Source of the DNA: an uncultured Gammaproteobacteria bacterium
Lineage (GTDB): Bacteria > Pseudomonadota > Gammaproteobacteria > CAYNNN01
Length of the DNA stretch: 64,000 bases
Assembly: GCA_964398665.1 (NCBI GenBank)
Contig: CAYNNN010000003.1
Location: 55-64,054, forward strand
Direction: 5' to 3'
Positions 8,590 through 32,400 of the stretch are shown here, piece by piece (within the stretch, counting starts at the first letter, position 1; every line of letters starts with the position of its first letter). The position numbers and the translations under genes are program-made. The notes under the pieces were generated by a model that was not told the origin of the DNA, searched no databases, and saw only the letters and a list, made by a program, of their open reading frames with translations.

Positions 8590-9544
8590 GTGCTGCCTGC
8601 TGGGTATCCCTACGCAGCAGTTCCAATAACTGCGTCAGGTCATCAGGTGGGGGAACCGCCCAGGTGCTCAGTGCGCCTGTCTTTGGATGGTTCAGGCTCA
8701 GGCGCGTGGCGTGGAGAGCCTGACGCTTGAACTGGCGCAAGCCCACCGCCAGCTCGGGCATGGCCTGGGGGGGCAGACGTAGCCGGGCACCATAAGCGGG
8801 GTCGCCAACCAGCGGATAACCTCGGTGGCTCAGGTGGACCCGAATCTGGTGAGTACGTCCGGTTTCCAGTTGCACCTGCAGCAGGGTGTGGGCGCGAAAC
8901 CGCTCGGCAACCCGGTAGTGGGTGATGGCTGGCTTGCCTTTCAGCACGACTGCCATTTTGGTGCGCTGGTGTGGGTCACGGCCCAAAGGAGCCTCTATCG
9001 TCCCTCCAGCGAGGGGGGTGCCCTGTATCAGGGCCAGGTACTCGCGCTGCACCTGGTGCTGGGCCAGGGCTCGCACCAGTGCGGTATGCGCCACCAGCGT
9101 GCGGGCGACGACCAGCAGGCCGCTGGTGTCCTTGTCCAGGCGGTGTACCAGTCCGGCCCGAGGTAGCGCTGCCAGTTCGGGGGCGTAGTGCAGCAGGGCA
9201 TTTTGCAGGGTTGAATCCGGATTGCCGGCACCGGGGTGGGTGACCAGCCCGGCTGGTTTGTTGATGACGATGACGTGATCATCTGCATGGATGACATTGA
9301 GCGCGAGTGCCTGGGCGATACAATCGGAAGCATCGGTAGGCGGCAGCAGGATTTCCACCGCTTCGCCGCCCTGGATCCGGGTATTGGCCTTAAGCCCGGT
9401 GCGGCCATTGATGTGGATGAAACCACTCGCCAGCAAGGTTTGCAGATAATTGCGTGAATAGTCGGGCAGCATCCGGGCCAGTGCCTGATCGAGCCGCTGG
9501 CCCTGAGCCGTGGCAGGAAGGGTGATGGTATAGCACAGGGTCAT
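8582..9544 (-). CDS. rluD: 23S rRNA pseudouridine(1911/1915/1917) synthase RluD
   Basis: S4 domain N-terminus plus RluA-family catalytic core (HRLDKDTSGLLVVA), 320 aa, genomic association with yfiH. Confidence 0.9.
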   Translation of the reverse strand: MTLCYTITLPATAQGQRLDQALARMLPDYSRNYLQTLLASGFIHINGRTGLKANTRIQGGEAVEILLPPTDASDCIAQALALNVIHADDHVIVINKPAGLVTHPGAGNPDSTLQNALLHYAPELAALPRAGLVHRLDKDTSGLLVVARTLVAHTALVRALAQHQVQREYLALIQGTPLAGGTIEAPLGRDPHQRTKMAVVLKGKPAITHYRVAERFRAHTLLQVQLETGRTHQIRVHLSHRGYPLVGDPAYGARLRLPPQAMPELAVGLRQFKRQALHATRLSLNHPKTGALSTWAVPPPDDLTQLLELLRRDTQQAAHV

Positions 9545-9927
9545 GGCAGGCTGATGATGCCTTCTGCCCCACCACTGGCGGCCTTGATGGCCAGCTCATC
9601 CAGGCCCAAGTGGGGATAGTTCATGACCCGCAGCAACATCGGCAGATTGACGCCGCTCACCAGACGCGTCTGGCCCTGCGGCAGGAGCAGGCTGGCCAGA
9701 TTGCTGGGCGTGGAACCATACAGGTCGGTCAACATCAACACGCCGCCACCCTGGTGGACTTGCTGCCAGGCCTGCCGGAGCCGGTGGTACACCGTGTCTG
9801 CAACTTCGCTGCTGGTGACCGCGCAGTTGATAACCGGCAGCGGGTACGACCCCAGAATGTGTTGAGCGCTGTCCAGCAGGGCTGCACCGAGTTCGCCATG
9901 TGTCACCAGCAGCACGCCGACAGCCAT
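9541..9927 (-). CDS. PTS EIIA component, mannose/fructose family (nitrogen-PTS associated)
   Basis: 128 aa, VGVLLVTHGELGAALLDSA... LTDLYGSTP typical EIIA-Man; immediately downstream of hprK. Confidence 0.8.
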   Translation of the reverse strand: MAVGVLLVTHGELGAALLDSAQHILGSYPLPVINCAVTSSEVADTVYHRLRQAWQQVHQGGGVLMLTDLYGSTPSNLASLLLPQGQTRLVSGVNLPMLLRVMNYPHLGLDELAIKAASGGAEGIISLP

Positions 9928-9936
9928 GTTGTTGCC

Positions 9937-10854
9937 TCAGGAGGTGAGCTGGATGGCGGTCCGCTGGCGTTCGGCCAGTTCGGCTGTCGCATTGTAGCCC
10001 CGCAGGCGCAGCAACTGGTCGCGTACCGCTGTTTCGACCAGCACCGCCAGATTGCGTCCAGCGACAACCGGCAGGGTGATTTGCGGGACGCTGACGCCCA
10101 GGATGCTGCGTCGGCTGCGTAAACCCTGCAGGCGTTCATCGCCTTGCAGGTTCAGGCCGGGGAGTGCCTGAAGATCGATGATCAGACGCAAGAATTTGTT
10201 CAGCTTCATGGCCGGGTCGCCAAACATGGCCCGGATGTTGAGCGCCCCCAGCCCCCGAACTTCCAGAAAATCCCGCAATAACTCCGGGCAGGCACCATTC
10301 AGGGTCTCTGGCCCCAACCGGGTGAGTTCCACCACGTCATCGGCAATCAGCCGATGCCCTCGGCTAATGAGTTCCAGGGCCAGCTCGCTTTTGCCAATGC
10401 CGCTGGCGCCGGTTAGCAGCACGCCCAAGCCCATGACTTCCAGAAAGACCCCATGCACGCTGGTACTGGCCAGGGCCGGTTCGGTGAGCAGATTGCGCAA
10501 GGTGGTACGCAAGGTTGCGAGGGGTAGGGGTGAGGCCAGCAAGGGCGTAGGTTGATGCTGGGCGTAGGCCAGCAGGCCGTCGCACAGACTTTGGTCAGCC
10601 AGCAGCAGGGCGCCGGGGCGAGCCGCAAACCATTGACCCAGTACCTGGCGCCGGGGCAGGTCATCCAACTGGCCCAGTTGCTCCAGGACTGCAGCGCCGA
10701 TAAGCCACAGACTGTGTGGGGCAGGCAGCGGGCCGTCAAGCTGGCACTCGGCGACCTGAGTCAGCGCCTCGCTTTCTTCCGGATCACCGCTCAGCCAGCG
10801 CAGCTGCAGGGTACCGCCCCAGTGCTGAATCAGCGTCAGGACACTAAGCGACAT
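9937..10854 (-). CDS. hprK: HPr kinase/phosphorylase
   Basis: GVLLTGASGIGKSELALELISRGHRLIADD Walker A / HprK signature; start taken at MSLSVLTLIQHWGG; track ORF starts at 10893. Confidence 0.85.
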   Translation of the reverse strand: MSLSVLTLIQHWGGTLQLRWLSGDPEESEALTQVAECQLDGPLPAPHSLWLIGAAVLEQLGQLDDLPRRQVLGQWFAARPGALLLADQSLCDGLLAYAQHQPTPLLASPLPLATLRTTLRNLLTEPALASTSVHGVFLEVMGLGVLLTGASGIGKSELALELISRGHRLIADDVVELTRLGPETLNGACPELLRDFLEVRGLGALNIRAMFGDPAMKLNKFLRLIIDLQALPGLNLQGDERLQGLRSRRSILGVSVPQITLPVVAGRNLAVLVETAVRDQLLRLRGYNATAELAERQRTAIQLTS

Positions 10855-11401
10855 CAGTCCGGGTGGGGGTCGGGGCGGTGCGGGTATCGTCATTGCAGTG
10901 CTGTGCAGTAGCCAGCAGCTTCATGAGTGTTTCGGCCTCGCCGACCGTGCGGAGCTGATCCAGCGTGGCTGCATCGCTCATGATGCTGGCCAGTTGCGCC
11001 AGCAGCCGCAGGTGCAGATCGTCGGCCTGTTCCGGAATCAGCAATCCCAGCAGCAGGGTGACTGGCATGTCGTCAAGGGCGTCAAATTCCAGTGGTTCCT
11101 GGAGGCTTAAAAACGCCGCCCTGGGTGCCGTGAGTCTGGGCAGGCGGGCATGGGGAATGGCTACCCCGCTGCCCAGGCCGGTACTGCCCAGCCGCTCCCG
11201 CTCCAGCAGTTGGGTGTAAACCACGTCGAAGTCAATCTCGGGCCCCAGTGCTGGAGCGCCGCAGAGCAACAGCTCTGCCAGACGTTCCAGGGCCCGCTTC
11301 TTGCTGCGGAGGGGGGCAGCGAACAACACCCGCTCGGGAGCCAGCAGGCTGGCCAGCGGCGGCGTTGCTGTCGGGGCAGCGGGGGCATCAGGGCAAGCCA
11401 C
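10844..11401 (-). CDS. ptsN: PTS EIIA-Ntr nitrogen regulatory protein PtsN
   Basis: LLAPERVLFAAPLRSKKRALERLAELL... GVAIPHARL typical PtsN; start uncertain (proposed GTG near 11401; track ORF runs to 11476). Confidence 0.75.
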   Translation of the reverse strand: MACPDAPAAPTATPPLASLLAPERVLFAAPLRSKKRALERLAELLLCGAPALGPEIDFDVVYTQLLERERLGSTGLGSGVAIPHARLPRLTAPRAAFLSLQEPLEFDALDDMPVTLLLGLLIPEQADDLHLRLLAQLASIMSDAATLDQLRTVGEAETLMKLLATAQHCNDDTRTAPTPTRTDVA

Positions 11402-11517
11402 CTGCTTTTCCGAGGCCAGCGGTGCTGTAGCGGTCCAGGTGAACAGGGGGCGACGGAAGCCCATAGACCAGTTCATGAACGTACTCCTCAGGGTGTGCGA
11501 ACCCTTGTCCTGCTGTA

Positions 11518-11838
11518 TTAATCCGCTTGTTTGAGTGCGCTTTCACCACGGTGGTGGTCGTGGTGCTTGTCCTGAAGCTTTTTCAATTGCCGATCCAGCT
11601 TGTCCAACAGCATGTCGATGGCTGCATACATGTCGGCCTCCGTGGCATCGGCAAACAAGTCACCCCCGTTCAGGTGCAGGGTAGCCTCGGCCTTGTGCCG
11701 GAGTTTATCCACACTGAGAATGACGTGGGTATGAGTTGCGTGGGCACCGTGCCGTTCAAGTCGGGTCAGCTTATCCTTGACGTAATCGCGCAAGGCAGGG
11801 GTTACTTCGATATGATGACCAGTAATATTGAGTTGCAT
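11518..11838 (-). CDS. hpf: ribosome hibernation promoting factor / sigma-54 modulation protein
   Basis: MQLNITGHHIEVTPALRDYVKDKLTRLERH... 106 aa, ATG at 11838 with GGAGAT RBS; directly after rpoN. Confidence 0.9.
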   Translation of the reverse strand: MQLNITGHHIEVTPALRDYVKDKLTRLERHGAHATHTHVILSVDKLRHKAEATLHLNGGDLFADATEADMYAAIDMLLDKLDRQLKKLQDKHHDHHRGESALKQAD

Positions 11839-11857
11839 GGGATCTCCTTGAAGCAAG

Positions 11858-13348
11858 TCAGCCAGCTTGCTTACGTTCGTTTGAAGGCGGAATGGCGAGC
11901 ATTTCGCGGTATTTGGCGACGGTTCGGCGTGCGACCTTGATGCCCTGCTGCCCCAGACGCTTGACCAGATCGCTGTCACTGAGCGGTTCGAGGGGTTGCT
12001 CGGTCGTGATGAACTGGCGGATCAGGGCACGGATGGCAGTCGCCGAGCAAGTGCCGCCGGCGTCGGTTTGCACATGACTGGAGAAGAAATACTTCAGCTC
12101 CAGCAGCCCGTGCGGGGCCAGAAGATATTTGTTGCTGGTAACCCGCGAGACTGTAGACTCGTGCAGGCCAACCCGCTGGGCAATGTCGCGCAGTACCAGC
12201 GGCTTCATCGCGGCAGGTCCGTGCTCGAAAAAAGCTTGTTGCGCGTCAACGATCATGCTGCCCACACGGAGTAAGGTTTCATGGCGGTTATGCAGGCTTT
12301 TGATGAACCAGCGGGCCTCTTGTAGGCGTGTCTTAAGATAGTGGGCCTCTTGGCTACCTAAACCGTTCCTTAACAGACTCGCATAATATGCGTTCACGCG
12401 CAAGTGAGGCGTCAGGGCCGGGTTCAACTCTGCCACCCAGATGCCATGACGTTTGCGTGCCAGCAAATCCGGTACCGGGGGTGCCAGCTCCGAATCATGG
12501 CTGATTCTGCCAGGACGCGGGTGCATGTGCCGGATCAGGTTCAGGGCGCCCTGCATTTCGGCCTGACTGACGCCCAGCTGTTGTTGCAAGGTGGTGTAGT
12601 CTTGACGGGCCAGATGCACGAATTGCGTGTTGACGATGCGCAGGGCCAGATTCCGATAGGGAACATCGGGAAGCTGGGCCTGGAGTTGCAACTGCAGGCA
12701 TTCGGCCAGGTTCCGGGCTGCAATGCCGCTAGGCTCCAGCGTTTGCACCTGGTACAACACCTGCTCCAGCGCCTCCGGGCTGATGACCAACGCTGGGTTG
12801 AGTTGGGCACAGGTGGCGCTGAGATCTGCCAGCGGGGTGCGTAAATAACCATCATCATCAATAGCATCAATGATGACCCAGGCTTGGGCCAGGGTGCGCG
12901 GGTCGTTGATCAGGAGTCGGGCCTGCTCGCGCAAATCTGCGTGCAGGCTTTGAGGGGTGCTACACAGATCCAGTGGATCGAATTCCTCGCTGCTACCGGG
13001 ACTGCGGCCCTCATAGGCGCCGTCCTCCCAGTCGCCGGTGTCTTCCCAGTCAGTGCCGGCGTCCTCCGGCTCGCTGCCTGTTTCCGGCAGGTCAGTCTCG
13101 CCTGCGGTCTCTTCAAGTTCGGTCTGGGGCGCGGCAGCCAGCGATTCCGGGGCCACCACCGGCTCCATGCCTGCGCTGTCCTGCTCCCCATCCTCTTCGG
13201 CTTCCAGCAGGGGGTTTTCGTTGAGCGCCTGCTCGACTTCCTGCTGCAACTCCAGACTGGACAATTGCAGCAGGCGCAGCGCCTGACGCAACTGGGGCGT
13301 CAGGGCCAGATGCTGGCTCATCTTGAGTTGTAAACCGGGTTTCAGCAT
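11858..13348 (-). CDS. rpoN: RNA polymerase sigma-54 factor
   Basis: MLKPGLQLKMSQHLALTPQLRQALRLLQLSSLEL... and C-terminal RpoN box ARRTVAKYRE; 496 aa. Confidence 0.95.
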   Translation of the reverse strand: MLKPGLQLKMSQHLALTPQLRQALRLLQLSSLELQQEVEQALNENPLLEAEEDGEQDSAGMEPVVAPESLAAAPQTELEETAGETDLPETGSEPEDAGTDWEDTGDWEDGAYEGRSPGSSEEFDPLDLCSTPQSLHADLREQARLLINDPRTLAQAWVIIDAIDDDGYLRTPLADLSATCAQLNPALVISPEALEQVLYQVQTLEPSGIAARNLAECLQLQLQAQLPDVPYRNLALRIVNTQFVHLARQDYTTLQQQLGVSQAEMQGALNLIRHMHPRPGRISHDSELAPPVPDLLARKRHGIWVAELNPALTPHLRVNAYYASLLRNGLGSQEAHYLKTRLQEARWFIKSLHNRHETLLRVGSMIVDAQQAFFEHGPAAMKPLVLRDIAQRVGLHESTVSRVTSNKYLLAPHGLLELKYFFSSHVQTDAGGTCSATAIRALIRQFITTEQPLEPLSDSDLVKRLGQQGIKVARRTVAKYREMLAIPPSNERKQAG

Positions 13349-17988: not shown

Positions 17989-19497
17989 CTATGCGAGCAT
18001 CTTATAACTGAAGCGCTCATAATGGCCGCTGGCTTCCAGGAGCTTGTCGGCACGAATGGGTTGGGGCTGACCGGGGCGCGGCAGGAGCAGCAGCCCCCGG
18101 TCGGCATGATACAGTCCTTTGCTGGTCAGCAATTGTTGGCCCGGAAGCTGAAGGGCAAAGTAATGCTGGTCCTGGTAGCGCAGAGCTGCCGGGGTTGGGC
18201 AGCAGGGTAGTAGCTGGACGCCCAGACTGAGCTGCTGGGTATTCAAGTTACGCTGCCAGCGTACCATGCCTACCTGCCAGGCTGGTTCGGATTCGGCGCG
18301 CAGGGCCAGCAACTGCCCGACTCCCAGATTGGGAGCTGGCAGGGGTACCAGCAACTGGGCACCCTCGGCGTGGCGGCCTTCGGCCTGCCAATGCTGCAAC
18401 CTGGGCTGGACGGCGGTCTGAAAGCCGTAGGCGCCGACTGCCTGAATATCATGATCCTGGGGGTTATCGCCAAATTCAGCCAGCGGCAGGCCGCCCAGGA
18501 GTGGATACAGGGCATTCAGGCCGTAGCTGCCCAAAATGGGCTGTTGCTGGCGATTGCGCAAGGTGCGCCGTTGCGGTTTGAGCTTCCAGGCGCGGGCAAT
18601 GCGCTGCAAAAAAGCCGCTTGTTCCGGATCACTGTGCTGCGCCTGCTGTTCCAGATGCTGCACCAGACTCGCGGTGCTGAACAGGCGGTAGCGCTGTAGT
18701 TCTACCTGAGCGACCTTGAGGGGCATATGCGCCTGCAAGCCGTGTTCGGCACGCAAATCCACCCAGAAATGACCCGCAGTGGGCCGTTGTGTCGTCAGGG
18801 GCAACAATTCAACCCGAGCGGCACATTCGCCGAGCATCTGACGCAACCGGCGCTGATCCTGCACTGAAAACCGATATGGATCAATCAAAATTAGCAACAG
18901 ATAGCGTTGGTACAGCTGATCGGCCCTGAGCAAGGTCTGGGCTTGCCACGGGTGTGCGACCGGCTGCTCCAGCCAGCCGGCAGTTTCAGCCAGCTGATAG
19001 AGGGCGTGGAACCACTGACAGGCCAACGGACAGGGGGCGTAATATTGCATGGCCAGTTGAATCTGTTCCAGCTGGTAGTACATGGCTTGAGCCAGGGCTT
19101 GCGCGCCGGCATTCTGACCGCCCCACAGACTGCGATTATGCAGCGTGTCGTGCAGAACCTGAAGTTGGCCCAGGACAAAATGTTGGTAAAGCTGGCCCAA
19201 GCGGTCGCAAAAATTATCCTGGGGGCCGTTGCGGGGCGGGGTGTGCTGGAGGTGCTCATGCAGATAGGCCAGCGGCTCGCGGTAAGCGGCCAGAACCGCT
19301 GCCCGCTGGGTGCCGGACAGGCTATAATGGCTCAGGGTCTGGACTTGCTCCAGCAGGGCTTCGGTCAGTTGGGCGGCGTGGGCCGTGGGGACGCTGGCCA
19401 GCCAGCGGCGTACGCCACCGGGGCTGATTTCCAGATGGGGTGGCCGCACCGCCGAAGTTTCGGGCAGGGGCAAATGGGCAGGCCAGGTCAGGGTCAT
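17989..19497 (-). CDS. hypothetical Gln/Leu-rich protein of about 502 aa, function unknown
   Basis: Long ORF with coding-like composition; no recognisable catalytic motif; start taken at MTLTWPAHLPL (track ORF starts 19632, overlapping the divergent gene). Confidence 0.55.
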   Translation of the reverse strand: MTLTWPAHLPLPETSAVRPPHLEISPGGVRRWLASVPTAHAAQLTEALLEQVQTLSHYSLSGTQRAAVLAAYREPLAYLHEHLQHTPPRNGPQDNFCDRLGQLYQHFVLGQLQVLHDTLHNRSLWGGQNAGAQALAQAMYYQLEQIQLAMQYYAPCPLACQWFHALYQLAETAGWLEQPVAHPWQAQTLLRADQLYQRYLLLILIDPYRFSVQDQRRLRQMLGECAARVELLPLTTQRPTAGHFWVDLRAEHGLQAHMPLKVAQVELQRYRLFSTASLVQHLEQQAQHSDPEQAAFLQRIARAWKLKPQRRTLRNRQQQPILGSYGLNALYPLLGGLPLAEFGDNPQDHDIQAVGAYGFQTAVQPRLQHWQAEGRHAEGAQLLVPLPAPNLGVGQLLALRAESEPAWQVGMVRWQRNLNTQQLSLGVQLLPCCPTPAALRYQDQHYFALQLPGQQLLTSKGLYHADRGLLLLPRPGQPQPIRADKLLEASGHYERFSYKMLA

Positions 19498-19620
19498 GGT
19501 GTCATCCGTCAGATAAGGCCGACAGGGTTGAGTGTAGCCGTGATTGTGCCAGCCAGATGGAATTTTTCGCAAGCCCAGACAGTCCCAGCAGCAGCGACAA
19601 GAAAAGTAGGGTGGAGTGCC

Positions 19621-20145
19621 ATGAAATTGCAAGTTGGGTTATTCATCATCATCAGCTACTGGCTCATGGGTCTGGCCCAGGCCGAGTCAGCATTTTTTAA
19701 CCAGACGCTGGGAGATTTGCGTGAAGAACTCCAGAACGCGCGCCAGCAGGGCAAGCAGGGGGTCATGCTGTTTTTCGAGATGGACGAGTGCCCGTTTTGT
19801 CGACGCATGAAGGAGACTGTCCTGAATCAGCCAGAAGTGCAGAAATTCTATCAGCAACATTTCATCAGCCTGCCCCTGGATATCGAGGGTGATCTGGAGA
19901 TTACCGATTTTGCAGGCAAGGTCCGAACCCAGAAAGACTTTGCCACCCGTGAGCATCGGGTGCGTGCCACGCCGGTGATCATTTTCTTTGACCTGGAGGG
20001 CAAACCGGTAGCCCGCTATACCGGGGCAACCTCGGGGGTGCAAGAATTTCTCTGGCTGGGCGAGTATGTGGTGGGCGGCCATTATAAAACCCCTGGTATG
20101 GACTTCAGCCTGTACAAGAAACAGCGTGCCCAGGGTAAACCGTGA
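19621..20145 (+). CDS. periplasmic thioredoxin-fold protein (CPFC active-site motif, signal peptide)
   Basis: MKLQVGLFIIISYWLMGLAQA signal; VMLFFEMDECPFCRRMKETV thioredoxin-like CxxC; ATG at 19621; overlaps next gene by 4 nt. Confidence 0.7.
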   Translation: MKLQVGLFIIISYWLMGLAQAESAFFNQTLGDLREELQNARQQGKQGVMLFFEMDECPFCRRMKETVLNQPEVQKFYQQHFISLPLDIEGDLEITDFAGKVRTQKDFATREHRVRATPVIIFFDLEGKPVARYTGATSGVQEFLWLGEYVVGGHYKTPGMDFSLYKKQRAQGKP

Positions 20146-21476
20146 GTTACCGCACCCTGGTGCTGGGTTTCACACTGCTGGCCGGGACGCCTGGGTGGGC
20201 GGCTGAACCCGAGCCGCTGCCGGAACCACTGACGCTGGAATGGGCCTTGAGTCGCAGTGATGCGCATCCGGGGGTAGCATTGGCCCAGGCCGAGCAGGAC
20301 GGAGCCGTGGCCCGGACCCGGCGGGTAGTTGCCGATACGGCCTGGAATCTGGAGGCCGAAGCCCGGTTACGCTACATAGACCCGAATCCGACTGCGCCAG
20401 ATGCCCGCTCTGAAGACCACCAGCTGGGTTTGCGGCTGAGCAAAACTTTGTATGATTTTGGCCGTAGCACGTATGCCCGTGAGGCGGCCAGTGCCCGCCA
20501 GCAAAGTGCTACCTATCAACTGACTGACCGTGCAAACACCCAGCGTCTGGAGGTGATGGAACGGTTTCTGGCAGTGCTGTTGGCTGACCTGGCGGATGCC
20601 AGTACGGATGAGGCGATGGCCGTGGCCTATGTGGAACTGGATCGCCTGCGCCAGCGCCGGGAACTGGGTCAGGTGGACGAAGTGACGTTGCTGGCCAAGG
20701 AAGCCGCCTACCAGACCCTGCGTACTGAGCGCGTCCGTGCTCAACATGCCCGTCAGGCCAGCCGTACCCGGTTAGCACTGACCTTGGGTCACACGGGCGC
20801 TTTGCCGGCCACTTTGACGCCCCCGCCCCTGCTGGATTTGCAACGCCCCCTGCCGCCGGTGCCTACTGCCTGGTTGGCCCAGGCTCAAGCTCAAAATCCG
20901 GTTCTACAGGCATTGCAGGCCCAACTGGCGGCCAGTACGGCGGCCAGGGCAGCCGCACGCGCTGAGGTTCAGCCGACCGTGCGGGCTGAAGTCGAAGCCT
21001 ATACCTATACCCGTGACCTTTCGGGGCGGGATGAGTTTCGGGCGGGTCTGGTGCTGCAAGTACCCCTGTTGACCGGTGGTCGGGTGGATGCCCTGGCTGC
21101 CGAGCGCGAGGCCGAACGCCAAAGTGCTGCCGCCCGCCTGCAGCAGCGCCAGCTGGAAGTTCGTCAGCAACTGACCGAACATTGGCTGGCCTTACAAGGC
21201 TTGCGGGCCGAACATGAAGCCCTGCAAGCCGGGATGCGCTATCGGGATCGCTACCTGGACCGCAGCCGCACCCGCTACGAGATGGAAGTGCAGGCCGACC
21301 TGGGTGATGCAATGGTACAGATTGCCCAGCAAAAATTGCAGCTTGCGCAAAATGAATATGCCCAGTTGCATACTTGGGCCAAATTGGACGCACTCCTAGG
21401 CTATCCTGTCTGGGATGCCGCCCGGCTTGATCCTGTCCCTGCCGTATCCGGGAGTACCGATGTCAAAACGCCTTAG
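20142..21476 (+). CDS. TolC-family outer membrane efflux protein (OMF)
   Basis: Signal peptide, two repeated alpha/beta OEP halves, 444 aa; stop overlaps next start. Confidence 0.8.
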   Translation: MSYRTLVLGFTLLAGTPGWAAEPEPLPEPLTLEWALSRSDAHPGVALAQAEQDGAVARTRRVVADTAWNLEAEARLRYIDPNPTAPDARSEDHQLGLRLSKTLYDFGRSTYAREAASARQQSATYQLTDRANTQRLEVMERFLAVLLADLADASTDEAMAVAYVELDRLRQRRELGQVDEVTLLAKEAAYQTLRTERVRAQHARQASRTRLALTLGHTGALPATLTPPPLLDLQRPLPPVPTAWLAQAQAQNPVLQALQAQLAASTAARAAARAEVQPTVRAEVEAYTYTRDLSGRDEFRAGLVLQVPLLTGGRVDALAAEREAERQSAAARLQQRQLEVRQQLTEHWLALQGLRAEHEALQAGMRYRDRYLDRSRTRYEMEVQADLGDAMVQIAQQKLQLAQNEYAQLHTWAKLDALLGYPVWDAARLDPVPAVSGSTDVKTP

Positions 21477-22218
21477 CCCCGTTGTCCCGATGCTGGTGGC
21501 TGCGCTGATGCAGTCAGCAGTCGGTGCTGAAGTCGAGGCCCGATTGAACTGGCTGGAGCGTGTGGATCTGGCGCCGTTGGTGTCGGGTCAGGTCAGTAGT
21601 CTCAAGGTCCAGCCCGGTAGTCGGGTCCAAAAGGGCCAGATTCTGTTGACCCTGGATCCCCGACCCTTTCAGGCCCGCCTCCAGGCAGCTACAGCGGAAC
21701 TGACCCGCAGCCGTGAGGTGGCCGCCGAGGCCCAGCGCGAGCAGACACGTGCCCAGCAGCTTTATGACAAGATGCTGAGTTCAGACCATGATCTGCAAAG
21801 TGCCAAGCTGGCTGCCGCCCAGGCTGCAGCAGCGCATCAGGCCGCGCAGGCGCAACTCACCCAGGCACAACTGGAACAGGAATATGGCAGCCTCAAAGCG
21901 CCGTTTGCCGGGGTGGTGGTCGCAGTACAAACCGCTGTGGGTCAGGCAGTCGTCAGCCAGTGGCAGGCTACCCCGTTATTGACTGTGGCCCGGGCCGATG
22001 CTTTGTTGGCCCGGGCGGTCGTACCACTGGCACAGCTGGAGTCCTTGCAGGTCGGGCAGAATCTGCCCCTGCGCTGGGGCACCCGGCTGCTGACCGCACA
22101 AGTGCGCCACCTGGGGCTGGAACCGGTGGCCGGGGGTTATGTGCTGGAAGTTCAAGTGACGGTGCCCGCAGGCGTGACGCCTCGGGTGGGGGAAAGCGTT
22201 TATCTGGAGTTACCGTAA
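21460..22218 (+). CDS. short periplasmic adaptor (HlyD/MFP family), signal-peptide type
   Basis: MSKRLSPVVPMLVAALMQSAVGA signal; lipoyl-like, coiled-coil and beta-barrel segments; 252 aa; GGAG RBS; ATG 21460. Confidence 0.7.
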   Translation: MSKRLSPVVPMLVAALMQSAVGAEVEARLNWLERVDLAPLVSGQVSSLKVQPGSRVQKGQILLTLDPRPFQARLQAATAELTRSREVAAEAQREQTRAQQLYDKMLSSDHDLQSAKLAAAQAAAAHQAAQAQLTQAQLEQEYGSLKAPFAGVVVAVQTAVGQAVVSQWQATPLLTVARADALLARAVVPLAQLESLQVGQNLPLRWGTRLLTAQVRHLGLEPVAGGYVLEVQVTVPAGVTPRVGESVYLELP

Positions 22219-22524
22219 ATGATGATGCAGAAAGTGATGCCTCAGGGGATCAAGATTTGCCTGCACTGCCTGGTCGGGGGCAAGGTGCAGGGCGTGTTCT
22301 ATCGGGCAGCGGCGCGGGAACAGGCGACCCGGCTGGGGGTGACGGGCTGGATCCGCAACCGCGTTGATGGTTCAGTGGAGCTGCTGGCCTGCGGGGAGCG
22401 CGAAGCCGTGCGCCAATTTCAGGACTGGCTGCGGGTCGGGCCACCTCAGGCACGGGTCAGCAGTGTAGCCTGCGAGTCGGCCGATTATCAGGAGCTGGAT
22501 AATTTTCATGTGGATCGCGGATGA
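22219..22524 (+). CDS. acyP: acylphosphatase
   Basis: VGGKVQGVFYRAAAREQATRLGVTGWIRNRVDGSVE acylphosphatase signature; starts immediately after adaptor stop (TAAATG). Confidence 0.85.
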   Translation: MMMQKVMPQGIKICLHCLVGGKVQGVFYRAAAREQATRLGVTGWIRNRVDGSVELLACGEREAVRQFQDWLRVGPPQARVSSVACESADYQELDNFHVDRG

Positions 22525-24299
22525 ACCTGCTGGCGAACACCGAACACAAGCTGGGCTTGAATGAATTGCTGGACGGTCTGCTGGCCGAGGGCTTTATCAC
22601 GCCGCCTCAGGCGGAGAAAATACGTCCTAAAAACGGTGAACGCCTCAGCCTGCATCCTCTGGTGATCCTTGCTAATCAGGGTTGGACCCATCCCCAGCAG
22701 TCGACCCAGAAACTGCATCTGGAATTTCTCACCCAGTGGCTGGCCACCTGGTCGGGCTTGCCTTATGTGCGCATTGACCCGCTGAAAATCGATGTTACGG
22801 CGGTCACCAGTGTTATTTCCAGAGCCTATGCGGCGCGGTTCAACATTCTGCCGGTGGAGGTCGAGGGCGGTAGCCGAGTGGTGATCGCCACGGCGGAGCC
22901 ATTTATTCAGGAATGGCAGCAGGAACTGGAACGCATGTTGCGCCTGCAAATTGAGCGGGTGATCGCCAATCCTATCGAAATCAGCCGCTATCTCAACGAA
23001 TTTTACGGCCTGAGCCATTCCTTGCGCCGGGCTACGGCAGAAAAGGCCAAGGATGAAATCGTCGGGCTGGCAAATTTTGAGCAGCTGATTGAGCTGGGCA
23101 AGGCTGGCAAGCTGGACGCCAATGATCAGCATATCGTCCATATCGTGGACTGGCTGTTGCAATATGCCTTCGATCAACGGGCCAGTGACATTCACATCGA
23201 ACCCCGGCGTGACCAGGGCAATATCCGGTTTCGCATTGACGGCCTGCTGCATCTGGTCAATCAGATCCCTACTCCGGTCATGGCTGCTGTCACCAGCCGC
23301 ATCAAGGCCATTGGCCGGATGGACGTGATTGAAAAACGCCGTCCGCAAGATGGCCGCCTGAAAACCCGTACCCCCAATGGCAATGAAGTGGAAATCCGGA
23401 TTTCTTCCATGCCAACCGCCTTCGGGGAGAAATTCGTACTGCGTATCTTTGACCCGGAAGTACTGTTCAAAAGCTTGAGTCAGCTTGGTTTCAGTGGCCG
23501 GGATAAGGAACGTTGGCACCAGATGACCCGCCGCCCTCACGGCGTGATTCTGGTGACGGGGCCAACCGGTTCGGGGAAAACTTCGACGCTATACTCCACG
23601 CTCAAGCAGTTGGCCACCCCGGAAGTCAATGTCTGCACCATTGAAGATCCGATCGAAAATATCGTGCCTCAATTCAATCAGATGCAGGTACTCACCAATA
23701 TCGGGGTGGACTTCGCTACCGGGGTGCGTACCCTGCTGCGTCAGGACCCCGATATCATCATGGTGGGGGAAATCCGTGACAAGGACACCGCCGAGATGGC
23801 GATTCAGGCCGCCCTGACCGGGCATCTGGTGTTCTCCACCCTGCATACCAACGATGCGGCAGCGGCGCTTACCCGGCTGCTGGACTTGGGGGCGCCGGCC
23901 TATTTGCTCAATGCCACGTTGATCGGGGTGCTGGCTCAGCGTCTGGTGCGGGTGTTATGTCCGCATTGCAAGAAAACTGCCGAACCCGACCTTGCAGCCT
24001 GGGAGGCACTGATCCATCCGCTAAAACTGCCTCCGCCACGGCAGGTTGGCGTCAAGGTCGGTTGCGCCGAATGCCGCAATACGGGCTATCGGGGCCGGAC
24101 AGGGCTGTATGAAATGTTGGCCATGACTCCCAACCTGCGCAGGCGAGTGCATGAAGGCTGCGATTTGGCCGACCTGCGCAGGCAGGCATTGCAAGATGGT
24201 ATGGAAAACCTGCGCCTGAGCGGAGCACGTAAGGTGTATGCCGGGATTACCACGCTGGAGGAGATTTTCGACGTGGCTCCGGCTGCCGAGGAGCTGTAG
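22521..24299 (+). CDS. GspE/PilB-family secretion ATPase with N-terminal T2SSE_N (MshEN-like) domain and C-terminal CxxC...CxxC zinc motif
   Basis: N-terminal domain LPYVRIDPLKIDVTAV...; Walker A GPTGSGKTSTLYSTL; Walker B DPDIIMVGEIRD; CPHCKK...CAECRNTG; ATGA overlap with acyP. Confidence 0.85.
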   Translation: MNLLANTEHKLGLNELLDGLLAEGFITPPQAEKIRPKNGERLSLHPLVILANQGWTHPQQSTQKLHLEFLTQWLATWSGLPYVRIDPLKIDVTAVTSVISRAYAARFNILPVEVEGGSRVVIATAEPFIQEWQQELERMLRLQIERVIANPIEISRYLNEFYGLSHSLRRATAEKAKDEIVGLANFEQLIELGKAGKLDANDQHIVHIVDWLLQYAFDQRASDIHIEPRRDQGNIRFRIDGLLHLVNQIPTPVMAAVTSRIKAIGRMDVIEKRRPQDGRLKTRTPNGNEVEIRISSMPTAFGEKFVLRIFDPEVLFKSLSQLGFSGRDKERWHQMTRRPHGVILVTGPTGSGKTSTLYSTLKQLATPEVNVCTIEDPIENIVPQFNQMQVLTNIGVDFATGVRTLLRQDPDIIMVGEIRDKDTAEMAIQAALTGHLVFSTLHTNDAAAALTRLLDLGAPAYLLNATLIGVLAQRLVRVLCPHCKKTAEPDLAAWEALIHPLKLPPPRQVGVKVGCAECRNTGYRGRTGLYEMLAMTPNLRRRVHEGCDLADLRRQALQDGMENLRLSGARKVYAGITTLEEIFDVAPAAEEL

Positions 24300-24871: not shown

Positions 24872-26575
<1,704 letters not shown>

Positions 26576-27612: not shown

Positions 27613-29427
27613 TTACGATCTTTCGATGTGCGCCTGATACGCCCGCCAGCCCCCCAAGTGCGTAATATCCGCCGCACTTGCCAGCGCAGTCGGCTCGCAA
27701 ATAAACCCACTGTACCAACGCCCATCCGCCAGTTCCACCTTGCCAATCCCCAGCGGTGCGGGAATACCCGCCACAAACGAGCCGAATTGCGCGGTGGGCA
27801 AACGCCAGATTTCCACCTCAATCGCCGCGCCATTGGCTTCATCCCGTACCATGCCGGGGCGGAACGGTGGGCCACCTGCCAGTGCGTACAAGCGGTAACA
27901 GGCAGCACTGTATGTTTTTGCTACCAACTCCCCACCGCGCTCGGTTAGTTGCCAATTGAGCGGCAACCCTTGCAAGTGTGCGCCGCATACCACGACTTCG
28001 ATGCGGTCATCTACCCCCGCTGCCTTGGCTGATGACGGCGGCAATGTCTGTCCCGTTGCCCCCAGCGGCAATTGCAAGGCTTGTTGCCAACGGTTGGCAA
28101 GGCTCAGTAAGCGGTTGTCGCTAAAGGCGCGGGAAAACAGCGTCACCCCAAACGGCAAACCGTTTTCCAGAAAACCCGCAGGCATTGCCACTGCGGAACA
28201 ATCCAGCAAATTCATGAAGTTGGTGTAATACCCCAAATGGCTGTTAAGGCGGATCGGGTCGGCATCCACTTCGGCGATGGTATAGAGCGTCCCGGCTGTG
28301 GGCGTGAACAGGCAATCGAAATGCTCTAGCAACGGCTGTACTTGTTGGTAATACGCCTGCAATTGATATTGCGCCCGAAACACATCCTCTGCTCGCGCCT
28401 CCGCCTGACTGGCAAGGATGTCGCGGATCACCGGCAGCATGGCAGCGGCATCAACCCCTGCGGTAGCAATCCGCCGTTCCGCCACCCACGGGCCTTCGTA
28501 CAGCAGCTTTGCCGCTTGCAGGAACGGGGTAAAATCCACCCGCTGGCATTCGCCGCCCAACTGTTCCAATGTCTCCACCGTCGCCGCAAAACAGGCTTGC
28601 GCACTGGCATTGCCAAAAAATTGAAGTTGCTCGTCCTGCGGGATGGCAAAGCGGAAAGTGGATTTAGCAGGCACACCGTCATTACGCCGATTGGTGTCAC
28701 GGTTAGGGCGGGCAAACGCATCCTGTGCATCAAACTGTGCAGCAATATCAAATACCTGTGCTGCATCATCCGTGGTGGTGGCAAAAATACTCACGCAATC
28801 CAGACTACGGCAGGCAGGTACAACCCCGTGTGTACTCAACAAGCCCTTGCTGGGTTTCAAGCCGACAATATTGTTGAATGCCGCAGGCACTCGCCCCGAA
28901 CCGGCGGTATCTGTCCCCAAGGCAAACGTCACCAGACCCAATGCCACTGCCACCGCCGAACCGGAACTCGACCCACCGGAAATATACGCAGGGTTGAAAC
29001 TGTTGCGGCACGCCCCCCACGGCGAACGCACCCCCACCAGTCCTGTGGCAAACTGATCCAGATTGGTCTTGCCCAAGGGAATCGCTCCCGCCTTGAGCAA
29101 TTGCGCCACCACAAACGCATCGTCGGACGGTACGTAAGCAAACTCGGCACACCCCGCCGTGGTCGGGATTCCGGCAAGGTCGATATTGTCCTTGATTGCA
29201 AACGGCACGCCGTACAAGGGCAAGGTATCCGGGCTATGCCCCTCCAGCGCATCCAGATAGGGCTGGAGTTGCGCACGGCTCAGGCGCGTGATCCAGACAT
29301 TGTGTGCGGCATAGCTTTCACAACGAAGCAGCAATTCATCCAGCAATTGCGCTGGCGTTAATGTGCCACTGCGATAGGCCGCCTGAAGTGCCACAATGGT
29401 CATGTTCAGTTGGGAAAAATCCATCAC
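27613..29427 (-). CDS. atzF: allophanate hydrolase (amidase-signature family)
   Basis: 604 aa, GGSSSGSAVAVALG...GTDTAGSGRVPAAF amidase signature plus AtzF C-terminal domain; overlaps carboxylase stop. Confidence 0.85.
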   Translation of the reverse strand: MMDFSQLNMTIVALQAAYRSGTLTPAQLLDELLLRCESYAAHNVWITRLSRAQLQPYLDALEGHSPDTLPLYGVPFAIKDNIDLAGIPTTAGCAEFAYVPSDDAFVVAQLLKAGAIPLGKTNLDQFATGLVGVRSPWGACRNSFNPAYISGGSSSGSAVAVALGLVTFALGTDTAGSGRVPAAFNNIVGLKPSKGLLSTHGVVPACRSLDCVSIFATTTDDAAQVFDIAAQFDAQDAFARPNRDTNRRNDGVPAKSTFRFAIPQDEQLQFFGNASAQACFAATVETLEQLGGECQRVDFTPFLQAAKLLYEGPWVAERRIATAGVDAAAMLPVIRDILASQAEARAEDVFRAQYQLQAYYQQVQPLLEHFDCLFTPTAGTLYTIAEVDADPIRLNSHLGYYTNFMNLLDCSAVAMPAGFLENGLPFGVTLFSRAFSDNRLLSLANRWQQALQLPLGATGQTLPPSSAKAAGVDDRIEVVVCGAHLQGLPLNWQLTERGGELVAKTYSAACYRLYALAGGPPFRPGMVRDEANGAAIEVEIWRLPTAQFGSFVAGIPAPLGIGKVELADGRWYSGFICEPTALASAADITHLGGWRAYQAHIERS

Positions 29428-32400
29428 ACCACCTCCAGAACCAGTAAACGTTCACCCGCCGCCACTTGCGCCCCCGCCTGACGCTGGATGGATAACACCA
29501 CCCCGTCGCAAGGGGCTTCCAGTTTGATTTCCATTTTCATCGCCTCCAGTATCAGCAAGGTATCGCCTGTTTTGACCGTCATACCCGGTTCGACCAGCAC
29601 TTGCCAGATGGAACAGGCTAAGGGGCTATCCACTGCGGTGTGGTGCGCATCCAGCGTTTCGCGTTCGGCTTCGGTGTTTCTGGCTTGTGATTCGCTTTCA
29701 AAATGGAATTGCCCGCTGTCGATCCAGTGCTGCAATTCGGTGTCAAACGCCGCCTGCCGTTGTGCCGTGAACGTAGCAATGTCGGCACGGTGTTGTTCCA
29801 GCATGGCGTTGTAGTCACGCAGGCTGAACGTGGTTTCCTCAATCTTCAGCGGGTAACGCCCGTGCGGGAAATCCTGCCGGATACGCTGCAATTCCTCGTG
29901 GCTGACTGCAAAGAAACGGATTTGGTCGAAAAAGCGCAACAGCCACGGTTGGGTAAACTCGCGGGTCTGGCGGTAACGGTTCCACATTTGCAAGGTACGC
30001 CCGACAAACTGGTAGCCACCGGGGCCTTCCATGCCGTAGACGCACAGGTAAGAGCCGCCGATACCGACCGAGTTTTCCGCCGTCCAAGTCCTTGCCGGGT
30101 TGTATTTGGTCGTCACCAGCCGATGGCGCGGGTCAAGTGGCGTGGCAACGGGTGCGCCCAGATACACATCGCCCAAGCCCATTACCAGATAGCTGGCTGC
30201 AAACACGATGCGCTTTACCGCGTCGAGGGAATCCAGCCCGTTGATACGGCGGATGAATTCGATATTGCTCGGACACCACGGCGCATCCTTGCGCACCGAT
30301 TGCTGGTATTTGGCGATGGCTTCATGGCAAGCCACGTCATCCCACGACAGCGGCAGGTGGACGATGCGGGCAGGCACTTGCATGTCCTCAATGCCTTGCA
30401 GCGCGTGTTCCGCCCGTTCCAGCCATGCCAGCAACGCCTCCACAGACAAGGTTTGGCTATCGTAGTGCACTTGCAGCGAACGGATGCCGGGGGTGAGTTC
30501 GCGCACGCCTTCGATTTGCTGTTCCTGTAACCACAGCATCAGCGCATGGACGCGGAAGCGCAGGTTGATGTCCAGCACCATCTCGCCGTATTCGACCAGC
30601 AGGTAGTGGTCGCCGCAGGGGCGGTAGGTAACACCAACGGGATGTTGGGCGGGGGAAATGGCTTTGAGAATAGGCGTTGTAGGTCGGGCTTCAGCCCGAC
30701 TTGTCGGACTAAAGTCCGACCCACAAGGTAGCAAATCGCCCAGGCTGGCAGTTTGCGCCCGCTCCAACGCGACCGCTTCTGCCAGCGTCACTGGCACAAA
30801 CCGCACCTTATCGCCTGCGCGTAGCTGCCCCAGTTTCCACAATTCCGCCGTGATGACCGTCGCGGGGCAAACAAAGCCGCCGAGGGACGGCCCATCTGGC
30901 CCCAGAATCACGGGCATATCGCCGGTAAAATCAATCGTACCCACCGCATAGGCATTGTCGTGCAAGTTGGACGGGTGCATCCCCGCTTCGCCGCCATCGG
31001 AACGCGCCCATTGCGGCTTGGGGCCAATCAGGCGGATGCCGGTACGGCTGGAGTTGTAATGCACCTCCCAATCGGTGGCAAAGAAGGTGTCGATGTCTTG
31101 CGCCGTAAAGAAATCCGGCGCACCGTGCGGCCCGTAGATGACCTTGATGTCCCAATGTGGCGTGATGTCCGGCAATAAATCGGTGGGCAACGGCGCAACG
31201 TCCGGCAATATTTCTCGAAAAACAGGCAGATGCAACACGTCACCCGTGCGCAGCACCCGACCTGCATGACCACCGAATTGCCCCAGCGTAAACGTGGCGC
31301 GTGAACCCAGATAAGGCGGGCATTGAAAACCACCTTGCACCAGCAAATACGCCCGTACCCCCGCCGCTTGCACCTTGCCCAGCTTCAAAACACTGCCAGC
31401 CGCCACGGGAATCACTTGCCAGAAAGGCACGGCAACGCCATCCAGCGTGGCATCCATGCACGCCCCCGTCAGTACCACACGGGTCGCGGTGTTGAAGCGT
31501 AATGCCGGGCCACTCAAGGTCATTTCCAACCCGGCACAGCCTGGCGCATTGCCCAGCAAGCGATTGCCAAGGCGAAACGACCAGTGATCGAAAGGCCCCG
31601 AAGGCGGCACACCAATGTCCCAATAGCCTTGCCGCCCCGGATAATCTTGCAAGGTGGTTTGCGTACCGGGCGTGCGTACATCCACCGTGCGCGGCTGCCA
31701 TGCCAGACTGTTGAGGTAACGGGTGGTAATTTGTCCCGCACGGAACGTAGCCGTCGCCAGCACTTGCCGCACGTAGGCGATATTGGTTTCAATGCCGTAA
31801 ATATCGGTAGCAGCCAGTGCCGCATCCAGTTGTTGACAAGCAGTCGCCCGATCCGGCGCATGGCAGATAATCTTTGCCAGCATCGGGTCAAAAAACGGCG
31901 CAACCGTCATGCCCGCTTCAATCCAGTGGTCAATACGCAAGCCCGCTGTTTGCGGGAACGCCACATGACTGAGCAACCCGGCACACGGCTGGAATTGCTT
32001 ATTCGGGTCTTCGGCGTACACACGGGTCTGGATGGCGTGCCCATTGGCGCGTAACGGTTCAGTCGGAAACACAAACTCGCCTGCGCCCAGTTCCAGCATC
32101 CAGCGCACAATGTCCACACCGTACACCTGTTCGGTAACACCATGCTCAACCTGCAAGCGGGTATTCACTTCCAGAAAATAAAACGCAGCGGTTTGCTGGT
32201 CGTAGACGAATTCCACCGTGCCAGCACTGCGGTATTGCACCGCGCTCATCAGGCGGATTGCCACCGCTTGCAGTTCCTGACGCACCGCATTCGGCAGGTT
32301 GGGGGCGGGGGTTTCTTCGATCACTTTCTGGTTACGGCGTTGCGCGGAACAATCGCGTTCGCCCAAGGCCAGCACCTTGCCCTGTCCGTCGCCGAACACC

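Follow-up and report, generated by a model that had tools for sequence, protein, structure and literature searches.

What kind of system is encoded when the genes for a thioredoxin-like protein, an outer-membrane channel, a periplasmic adaptor, an acylphosphatase and a secretion-type ATPase are packed so tightly on one strand that every neighboring pair of reading frames overlaps or abuts? This question is raised by positions 19621–24299 of a 64-kb stretch of DNA from an uncultured gammaproteobacterium; this stretch is hereafter called the window, and its numbering is used throughout. A first-pass annotation made from the letters of the window had offered two answers: namely, an uncharacterized envelope-spanning export or redox module, and a chance juxtaposition. 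The coordinates bear out the five co-directional genes, all on the forward strand, and the domain calls on all of them were reproduced with Pfam and NCBIfam. The junctions also agree with that annotation at the second (a 17-nt overlap between the genes of the outer-membrane factor (OMF) and the adaptor), third (TAAATG, between the adaptor and the acylphosphatase) and fourth (ATGA, between the acylphosphatase and the ATPase) positions, but the first junction, between the thioredoxin-like protein (Trx) and the OMF, is a 4-nt overlap of the sequence GTGA and not ATGA. In our judgment, the locus is rather likely to be a composite of separable units, i.e., a core of Trx, OMF and adaptor, an acylphosphatase (AcyP), a motor that would work on type IV pili (TfpB) and a homolog of the pilus regulator FimW, and not a secretion machine driven by the ATPase.

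The identity of the ATPase bears most directly on this answer. The gene (22521–24299) encodes a PilB-like protein of 592 amino acid residues with a T2SSE domain (415 bits in Pfam), a PF05157 domain called “MshEN” on residues 79–167, and the motifs of the superfamily: Walker A at residue 347, the Asp box at 375, Walker B at 409, the His box at 433, and the tetracysteine motif composed of CPHC at 480 and CAEC at 515. Against the NCBIfam equivalog model of TfpB (NF053534), the protein scored 862.9 bits versus a cut-off of 850, with residues 8–587 aligned to positions 4–583 of the 584 in the model, whereas it stayed below the cut-offs of both the PilB model TIGR02538 (499.5 vs 675.65) and the GspE model TIGR02533 (492 vs 630.25). 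Because the TfpB cut-off is passed and those of PilB and GspE are failed, the protein is assigned by its sequence to TfpB, an orphan PilB-like extension motor of type IV pili, and TfpB rather than GspE should be used as the gene name. In Acinetobacter baylyi, TfpB is a paralog of PilB and the second extension ATPase, which is needed for efficient extension of type IV pili (Ellison et al. 2021, PMC8213720; reviewed in PMC11656802), and its name refers to the absence of the pilB–pilC synteny, with neither pilC nor pilD alongside (PMC8213720). The window protein has the same PilB-like architecture (the GSPII/“MshEN” domain, T2SSE and the tetracysteine motif) and does not adjoin pilC or pilD either. 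It is different in that the TfpB cut-off is only just exceeded and that its gene overlaps the acylphosphatase gene and follows the OMF/adaptor module. The lack of GspF/PilC, pilins and a secretin, which had been taken as a sign of a new machine, is thus the normal state of TfpB, because this family is defined in part by the absence of pilB-type synteny.

The N-terminal region of the ATPase had also been described as a domain of the type binding cyclic di-GMP (c-di-GMP), but this reading has nothing behind it except the Pfam name. The MshEN receptor of c-di-GMP is composed of two tandem 24-residue motifs, RLGxx(L/V/I)(L/V/I)xxG(L/V/I)(L/V/I)xxxxLxxxLxxQ, that are placed 5 residues apart (Wang et al. 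2016, PMC5013675). No such tandem was found in the ATPase, where the best single site is 5 substitutions off the strict motif and 2 off a relaxed one and the best relaxed tandem is 8 off, and none of 120 TfpB homologs matched it. Indeed, the Pfam match on residues 79–167 falls downstream of the position of the motif in MshE; the window protein thus has the ATPase superfamily and the PF05157 domain in common with MshE but lacks the tandem motif that defines it. TfpB has a conserved N-terminal signature of its own, which is roughly (D/H)(R/K)KL.L.E...L..DGL followed by HPLV and then Q.W. Also, we noticed that the N-terminal module (the TfpB-specific helices plus GSPII) is doubled in two TfpB homologs of 712 and 788 aa (P0003 and P0004), which recalls the multi-GSPII PilF of Thermus.

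If the ATPase belongs to pili, it is then to be asked whether the OMF and the adaptor could reach any other source of energy. The adaptor (21460–22218; 252 aa) is a short, soluble periplasmic protein that is matched by HlyD_3, HlyD_D23 and Biotin_lipoyl_2 in Pfam and by the RND_mfp model TIGR01730 (123.5 bits) at positions 13–194 only, of 322 in that model. Its AlphaFold2 (AF2) model, in which the mean predicted local distance difference test score (pLDDT) is 92.5, consists of the lipoyl halves, the hairpin helices (residues 68–103 and 109–141) and a beta-barrel, and of nothing more; a membrane-proximal domain, a lipid anchor or lipobox, and a transmembrane helix are all absent as judged from the model, the profile coverage and the sequence. 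In a Foldseek search, the top match, and the one with the best target coverage, was the proteolytic core fragment of AcrA (2f1m; TM-score of 0.87 on the target); MacA, MexA and TMexC came next. The adaptor as modeled is hence the AcrA/MacA core minus the membrane-proximal domain. Arg97 and Leu101 at the tip of its hairpin are near-invariant among 113 adaptors, and we take these two residues to be part of the motif at the tip by which such adaptors touch TolC-type channels. Docking of the adaptor on the OMF is plausible because these tip residues are conserved, but contact of the adaptor with an inner-membrane pump is not. The truncation is not peculiar to the window, either: the cluster-linked homologs of the adaptor are all short, with a median of 257 aa.

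Compared with the tripartite pumps AcrAB–TolC, MexAB–OprM and MacAB–TolC, the cluster is similar in having a TolC-family OMF beside an adaptor that superposes on AcrA, MexA and MacA through hairpin, lipoyl domain and beta-barrel and that conserves the Arg and Leu of the hairpin tip. It differs from them in that its adaptor lacks a membrane-proximal domain, a lipid anchor and a transmembrane helix, that no RND, ABC or MFS pump is found near the module in any of the 80 loci described below, and that the constant partner of the module is a periplasmic thioredoxin with a CPFC active site, often accompanied by a TlpA-like redoxin. In the window as well, no RND, ABC or MFS pump was recognized adjacent to the cluster, as judged mostly by eye from translations of its open reading frames (ORFs); the earlier remark that this OMF/adaptor pair has no cognate inner-membrane pump accordingly holds both here and in the relatives. 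A type I secretion system, which needs an ABC exporter and an HlyD-type adaptor anchored by a transmembrane helix, is not a match, since the cluster has neither: the adaptor scored 27.8 bits against TIGR01843 (cut-off, 208.65), and there is no ABC gene beside it. In systems of the CusCFBA type, an OMF and an adaptor are combined with a small periplasmic carrier that is able to pass cargo to the duct. The cluster is built likewise, with a small soluble protein of the periplasm beside its OMF and adaptor, but it has no pump of the CusA type, and the would-be carrier has a redox-active thioredoxin fold and is not a metal chaperone. A Cus-like metal system was considered and found to be unsupported; the sequence of the adaptor has no clusters of Met or His and no Met/His-rich metal site.

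The remaining two members of the core reached none of the subfamily cut-offs tested. The OMF gene (20142–21476; 444 aa) starts with GTG, and its product is a TolC-family protein that has a signal peptide but lacks a lipobox cysteine. It was matched by PF02321 (OEP; 109 bits, two repeats) and scored 90 bits with TIGR01844, which is under the subfamily cut-off of 225; those of the TolC and NodT subfamilies were not reached. Trx (19621–20145; 174 aa) has a thioredoxin fold (Thioredoxin_2, 71.5 bits; Thioredoxin_7, 45 bits) with a signal peptide and CPFC, and its nearest solved relative is 4fyb (E-value of 9e-8). Because its scores are far below the cut-offs of DsbH (36.7 vs 190), DsbD (20.3 vs 330) and PedC (15.9 vs 120), Trx is placed by these profiles outside every named subfamily tested (DsbH, DsbD-gamma and PedC). 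The CPFC active site is invariant in all 85 related loci, and Trx is the best conserved member, with identity of about 52% where that of the adaptor is down to 37%. As read from the sequences, Trx, OMF and the adaptor have cleavable signal peptides that lack a lipobox, and AcyP and the ATPase have no signal peptide. We also considered that Trx might be a reductase of the OMF or the adaptor, but this was rejected because neither protein contains a cysteine.

We then ask how constant this arrangement is. One genome per species was scanned with an alignment of Trx, by which 342 relatives were obtained and 80 loci kept; the neighbors in these loci were scored by tblastn with the window proteins, and loci with enough flanking sequence were regarded as eligible. 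The taxa are mostly metagenome-assembled genomes, together with a few isolates of Thiohalophilus, Thiohalobacter, Thiofaba, Halothiobacillus and Ectothiorhodospira, and include lineages of the Chromatiales, Thiotrichales and Granulosicoccaceae types. Trx adjoins the OMF in all of the 79 eligible loci, and the short adaptor is present, so that the core is intact, in 71 of 72. The other genes are far less constant: AcyP comes immediately behind the adaptor in 40 of 67 loci, TfpB comes after AcyP or the adaptor in 12 of 57 (and in three more on short contigs), a TlpA-like redoxin with CPPC precedes Trx in 42 of 75, and a divergent FimW-like gene is found in 9 of 68. Trx, OMF and the short adaptor therefore constitute a conserved core, and AcyP, TfpB, the TlpA-like protein and the FimW-like protein are its variable companions. 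The gene order thus recurs outside the window genome, and the objection that the synteny might be confined to it falls. We regard the core as a pump-less, uncharacterized variant of the hardware of tripartite efflux, and what is moderately new here is this core together with its recurrent pilus-factor neighbors. In this sense, the part of the first-pass annotation that spoke of an uncharacterized module stands for the conserved core and is not supported for a five-part machine driven by the ATPase.

In an earlier search of a protein index with the short adaptor, only four short relatives were hit; this apparent rarity was misleading, as the word index is insensitive, and was corrected by the scan based on Trx. 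In a lineage of the Thiofaba/Halothiobacillus type, we noticed that a small Cys-rich DUF1540 protein takes the place of AcyP after the short adaptor (L009, 3034–3333; L072, 12710–13006). A literature search found no paper joining acylphosphatase, TolC and thioredoxin in sulfur-oxidizing bacteria, and the link of the module to sulfur oxidizers may reflect phylogeny only.

The flanks of the 80 loci, whose ORFs were clustered and then assigned largely by eye, contain recurrent housekeeping genes as well: purM/purN, DUF2066, perM, hda, DUF2069, wrbA, an arsC-like gene, DUF4398 and a LysM lipoprotein; slt, proS, a MIF-like gene, DUF4124, ilvI, amgK/murU, a GacA-like regulator, nadB and rpoE; and proB, obg, ispB, pntAB and ppx. 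Neither a pump of the RND, ABC or MFS type, nor DsbD/CcdA, nor a pil gene was recognized among these recurrent neighbors. Within eight genes on either side, 22 loci have proS and 31 have wrbA, at least as many as those in which TfpB adjoins the module, so that a large part of the shared gene order is inherited backbone.

The same separability was observed when the search was reversed. Among the 80 closest metagenomic relatives of TfpB (59–65% identical to the window protein), Trx, OMF and the short adaptor were found in none of the flanks, which covered up to 8 kb on each side. In Sulfuricella denitrificans, the start of tfpB overlaps the stop of ilvD (L001, 8001), and in Thiohalophilus tfpB begins 5 nt after ptsP (L002, 7996–8001), the other genes of the cluster being absent from both loci; further relatives adjoin amtB. 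The acylphosphatase is therefore not the only upstream gene with which tfpB is closely packed. ORF calling on high-GC tfpB loci gave many spurious antisense ORFs, and this analysis was used qualitatively only. Thiohalophilus thiocyanatoxydans appears to carry the module and TfpB unlinked, given a 270-kb contig for the module and a longest contig of 133 kb listed for the cluster of its named TfpB. Conversely, one metagenomic contig (L126, 1–6071) has DUF2069, wrbA, the arsC-like gene, DUF4398 and a class I fumarase followed by AcyP–TfpB with no core module, the fumarase filling the place that Trx–OMF–adaptor takes in other genomes. The acylphosphatase (22219–22524; 101 aa), which lies between the core and TfpB in the window, is by its motifs and scores an ordinary cytoplasmic enzyme: PF00708 gave 86.5 bits and NF011022 96.9 bits (cut-off, 91), and the motifs VGGKVQGVFYR (residues 19–29) and GWIRN (43–47), which cover the catalytic Arg loop and Asn, are both present. 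In terms of these units, therefore, the loci show the core alone, core with AcyP, core with TfpB, core with both, AcyP–TfpB with no core, and TfpB alone. That every combination exists is evidence against an obligate five-part machine.

Upstream of Trx, on the reverse strand, lies the gene of a FimW-like protein (17989–19497; 502 aa), which we count as the sixth gene of the block. Its longest ORF (17989–19632) begins at a TTG codon and extends into the 5' end of the Trx gene, which starts at 19621; from the alignment of orthologs, however, Met46 of this ORF (19497) is the start, which therefore leaves a divergent promoter region of 123 bp (19498–19620). Pfam has assigned PF27104 (FimW_N) in its precomputed matches to the window protein and to its orthologs with 75% and 53% identity. 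Our local Pfam search (E-values up to 10, also with the C-terminal half alone) gave no match to PilZ or FimW, the FimW model being newer than the copy used; FimW_C is recorded only as a weak match on a 23%-identical relative. An RxxxR motif (R310 and R314) is invariant in four sequences and precedes a beta-rich C-terminal part, so the architecture would be the helical FimW_N, RxxxR and a beta-rich C-terminus, the fold of the last being of low confidence. Indeed, the AF2 model built from the four sequences has a mean pLDDT of 66.8, with 50–68 in the C-terminal half, and was not used as evidence; a fold search with it gave no significant match, PilZ structures appearing only at E > 1. FimW of Pseudomonas aeruginosa (PA4958) is a regulator of pilus extension that binds and is activated by c-di-GMP, and it is grouped with PilZ-domain proteins (PMC11656802). 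The window homolog is similar to it in the FimW_N match, in RxxxR before a beta-rich C-terminal region and in the association with the gene of a pilus-extension ATPase, but it adjoins the OMF module whereas the gene of FimW sits with fimX (PMC11656802), and its FimW_C/PilZ fold is below confident detection. The FimW-like protein, a homolog of a pilus-extension regulator that responds to c-di-GMP, is a candidate c-di-GMP input.

The packing noted by the first-pass annotation as operon-like is reproduced in two sister species. The window lineage includes, besides the window, a close relative on contigs L004–L007 (TfpB, 96% identity) and a second species on L090 (TfpB, 90%; FimW-like protein, 53%); the junctions overlap by 4, 17, 1 and 4 nt in L004 and by 4, 17, 4 and 4 nt in L090. 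TfpB is thus 96% and 90% identical to its two orthologs, and its neighbors are only 53–89% identical. In all three species, the six-gene block and its overlapping junctions are kept, and the flanks are different. The units are probably co-transcribed in this lineage, as the tight junctions suggest, and both promoters presumably lie in the 123-bp intergenic region; a convergent OsmC gene closes the unit on the 3' side. No Rfam family matched the 123-bp region in a search for riboswitches and RNA elements, and a scan for promoters and terminators returned counts equal to those of shuffled background and was uninformative.

Putting these together, we propose the following for the composite. Six adaptors would meet the OMF trimer tip-to-tip, by way of the conserved tip of their hairpins, and thereby open the OMF; the lower end of the resulting duct would be free in the periplasm and would not rest on a pump of the inner membrane. 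The reductase-type Trx might act on periplasmic cargo bearing a thiol, disulfide or persulfide, deliver the cargo to the duct, or keep it reduced before exit, and a TlpA-like CPPC partner could assist Trx in roughly half of the genomes. An energizer or an electron donor of the DsbD/CcdA type, if any, would be encoded elsewhere. TfpB would act as a second extension motor on a type IVa pilus platform that is also encoded elsewhere, and not on the OMF and the adaptor. The adjacency of AcyP and TfpB would be largely inherited from an ancestral chromosomal neighborhood of basal Gammaproteobacteria and have been compacted here into overlapping frames.

Several points weigh against such a loose composite. 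The TfpB proteins linked to the module occur in at least five lineages, have mutual identity of 64% or less and are as distant from one another as from the unlinked ones. Also, the flanks of the linked loci differ from one another (prfC/osmC, fabA–fabB, trmB, crp–slt–proS and proB–obg), and gene order at identity of 64% or less is usually lost without selection. In other clades, the FimW-like gene, which stands for a second factor of pilus extension, adjoins the module, and both factors are found in the window lineage; there, the six-gene block with its overlapping codons has been kept while both flanks changed. The recurrent adjacency of TfpB and the FimW-like gene is accordingly more than would be expected from pure drift. 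Furthermore, the composite places the type IVa pilus machinery (PilB, PilC and pilins) elsewhere in a genome of which the data cover a 64-kb window, so this machinery is supposed and not seen.

These points lead to the alternative that survives best, namely a regulatory or functional coupling to the pilus program, in which Trx–OMF–adaptor, with or without AcyP, would be an accessory of type IV pili or surface attachment that is co-expressed with TfpB and controlled together with the FimW-like effector. The module might then export or process a periplasmic factor needed during pilus deployment or handle disulfides of pilus components. Consistent with this, two distinct factors of pilus extension flank the module (TfpB in 12 of 57 loci and three short contigs, and the FimW-like gene in 9 of 68), and the three species of the window lineage carry the two together, as none of the 80 loci does; the linked TfpB proteins fall into five or more deep groups whose flanks differ; and the gap to TfpB is short, being 36–144 nt in most loci and a 4-nt overlap in the window. 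Yet each of the two associations could trace to one ancestral event. All combinations of the units occur, including the core alone and AcyP–TfpB alone, and most tfpB genes are far from the module. In addition, proS, wrbA and other housekeeping genes are equally frequent neighbors, pil genes are found in 0 of the 80 loci, and there are no cysteines in the OMF or the adaptor. Coupling to pili is therefore possible, but we consider it clearly less probable than the composite. A more specific form of it is unlikely in our estimate: the core would be a new kind of envelope device, namely a pump-free exit duct fed from the periplasm and tied to type IV pili or surface behavior through co-expression with TfpB and the FimW-like effector, by which, for example, a thiol or persulfide product would be released or processed upon attachment.

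Still less credit is given to a neutral juxtaposition with no shared transcription, where the overlaps would have arisen from compaction of the genome and genes 1–3 and genes 4–5 would each be expressed and used on their own. The units are indeed separable, and tfpB abuts unrelated genes elsewhere (ilvD in Sulfuricella and ptsP in Thiohalophilus). Nonetheless, overlapping stop and start codons leave no space for non-coding internal promoters or terminators, no terminator-like site rose above background in the scan, and the same order survives in three species whose flanks have been rearranged; also, the adjacency of TfpB recurs in at least five deep lineages, which speaks against the chance juxtaposition that had been considered at the outset. 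Finally, a single envelope-spanning export or redox machine, in which a GspE/PilB-type ATPase would energize the OMF/adaptor duct, is highly improbable: all five genes are translationally coupled, the arrangement is kept in two sister species and no other energizing component is encoded nearby, but no polytopic inner-membrane platform is present in the cluster, be it in the window or in the 80 loci, the adaptor with neither a membrane-proximal domain nor an anchor cannot reach the inner membrane, the ATPase is orthologous to a pilus motor whose orthologs are abundant with no module nearby, and 45 of 57 module-bearing loci have no adjoining ATPase.

The composite of separable units would be of interest to two fields. 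For pilus biology, TfpB and FimW are recent and mechanistically unexplained factors, and their recurrent shared neighborhood offers candidate partners. For efflux biology, an OMF with a dedicated adaptor that would be unable to touch an inner-membrane pump, always accompanied by a redox-active Trx, could show how periplasmic cargo enters TolC-type ducts; conservation of the core extends over hundreds of species-level gammaproteobacterial genomes of the sulfur-oxidizer type. If TfpB and the module are merely co-located, the finding reduces to an annotation, i.e., the ATPase is TfpB and not GspE, and the module stays conserved with no assigned function.

The rest of the window appears ordinary, with housekeeping, urease and guanidine genes recognized mainly by eye. 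Neither gspF/pilC, pilin nor secretin genes were recognized adjacent to the cluster (mostly by eye, from ORF translations), and a similar inspection of the whole 64 kb recognized no pilC, pilD or pilin gene. A block of the rpoN–hpf–ptsN–rapZ–npr type on the reverse strand (9541–13348) is, as judged by eye, an ordinary housekeeping context. An Rfam match to 5_ureB_sRNA at 26140–26426 on the forward strand (97.9 bits) is antisense inside the coding region of ureC/ureB and probably reflects conservation of the coding sequence and not a real small RNA. A Guanidine-I riboswitch at 37221–37330 on the reverse strand (82.5 bits; gathering score, 63) heads the reverse-strand genes of 27613–37291, which by eye encode a binding protein and an ABC transporter, a urea-carboxylase-like enzyme of 1202 aa and an amidase resembling allophanate hydrolase, with ureABC after them and two further ORFs at 33101–34506 within the run; this run looks like the known type of guanidine-degradation operon. 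Close to it, on the forward strand, a Mn2+ (yybP-ykoY) riboswitch at 37544–37728 (82.3 bits) precedes an ORF (37595–38290) for a membrane protein of 231 aa.

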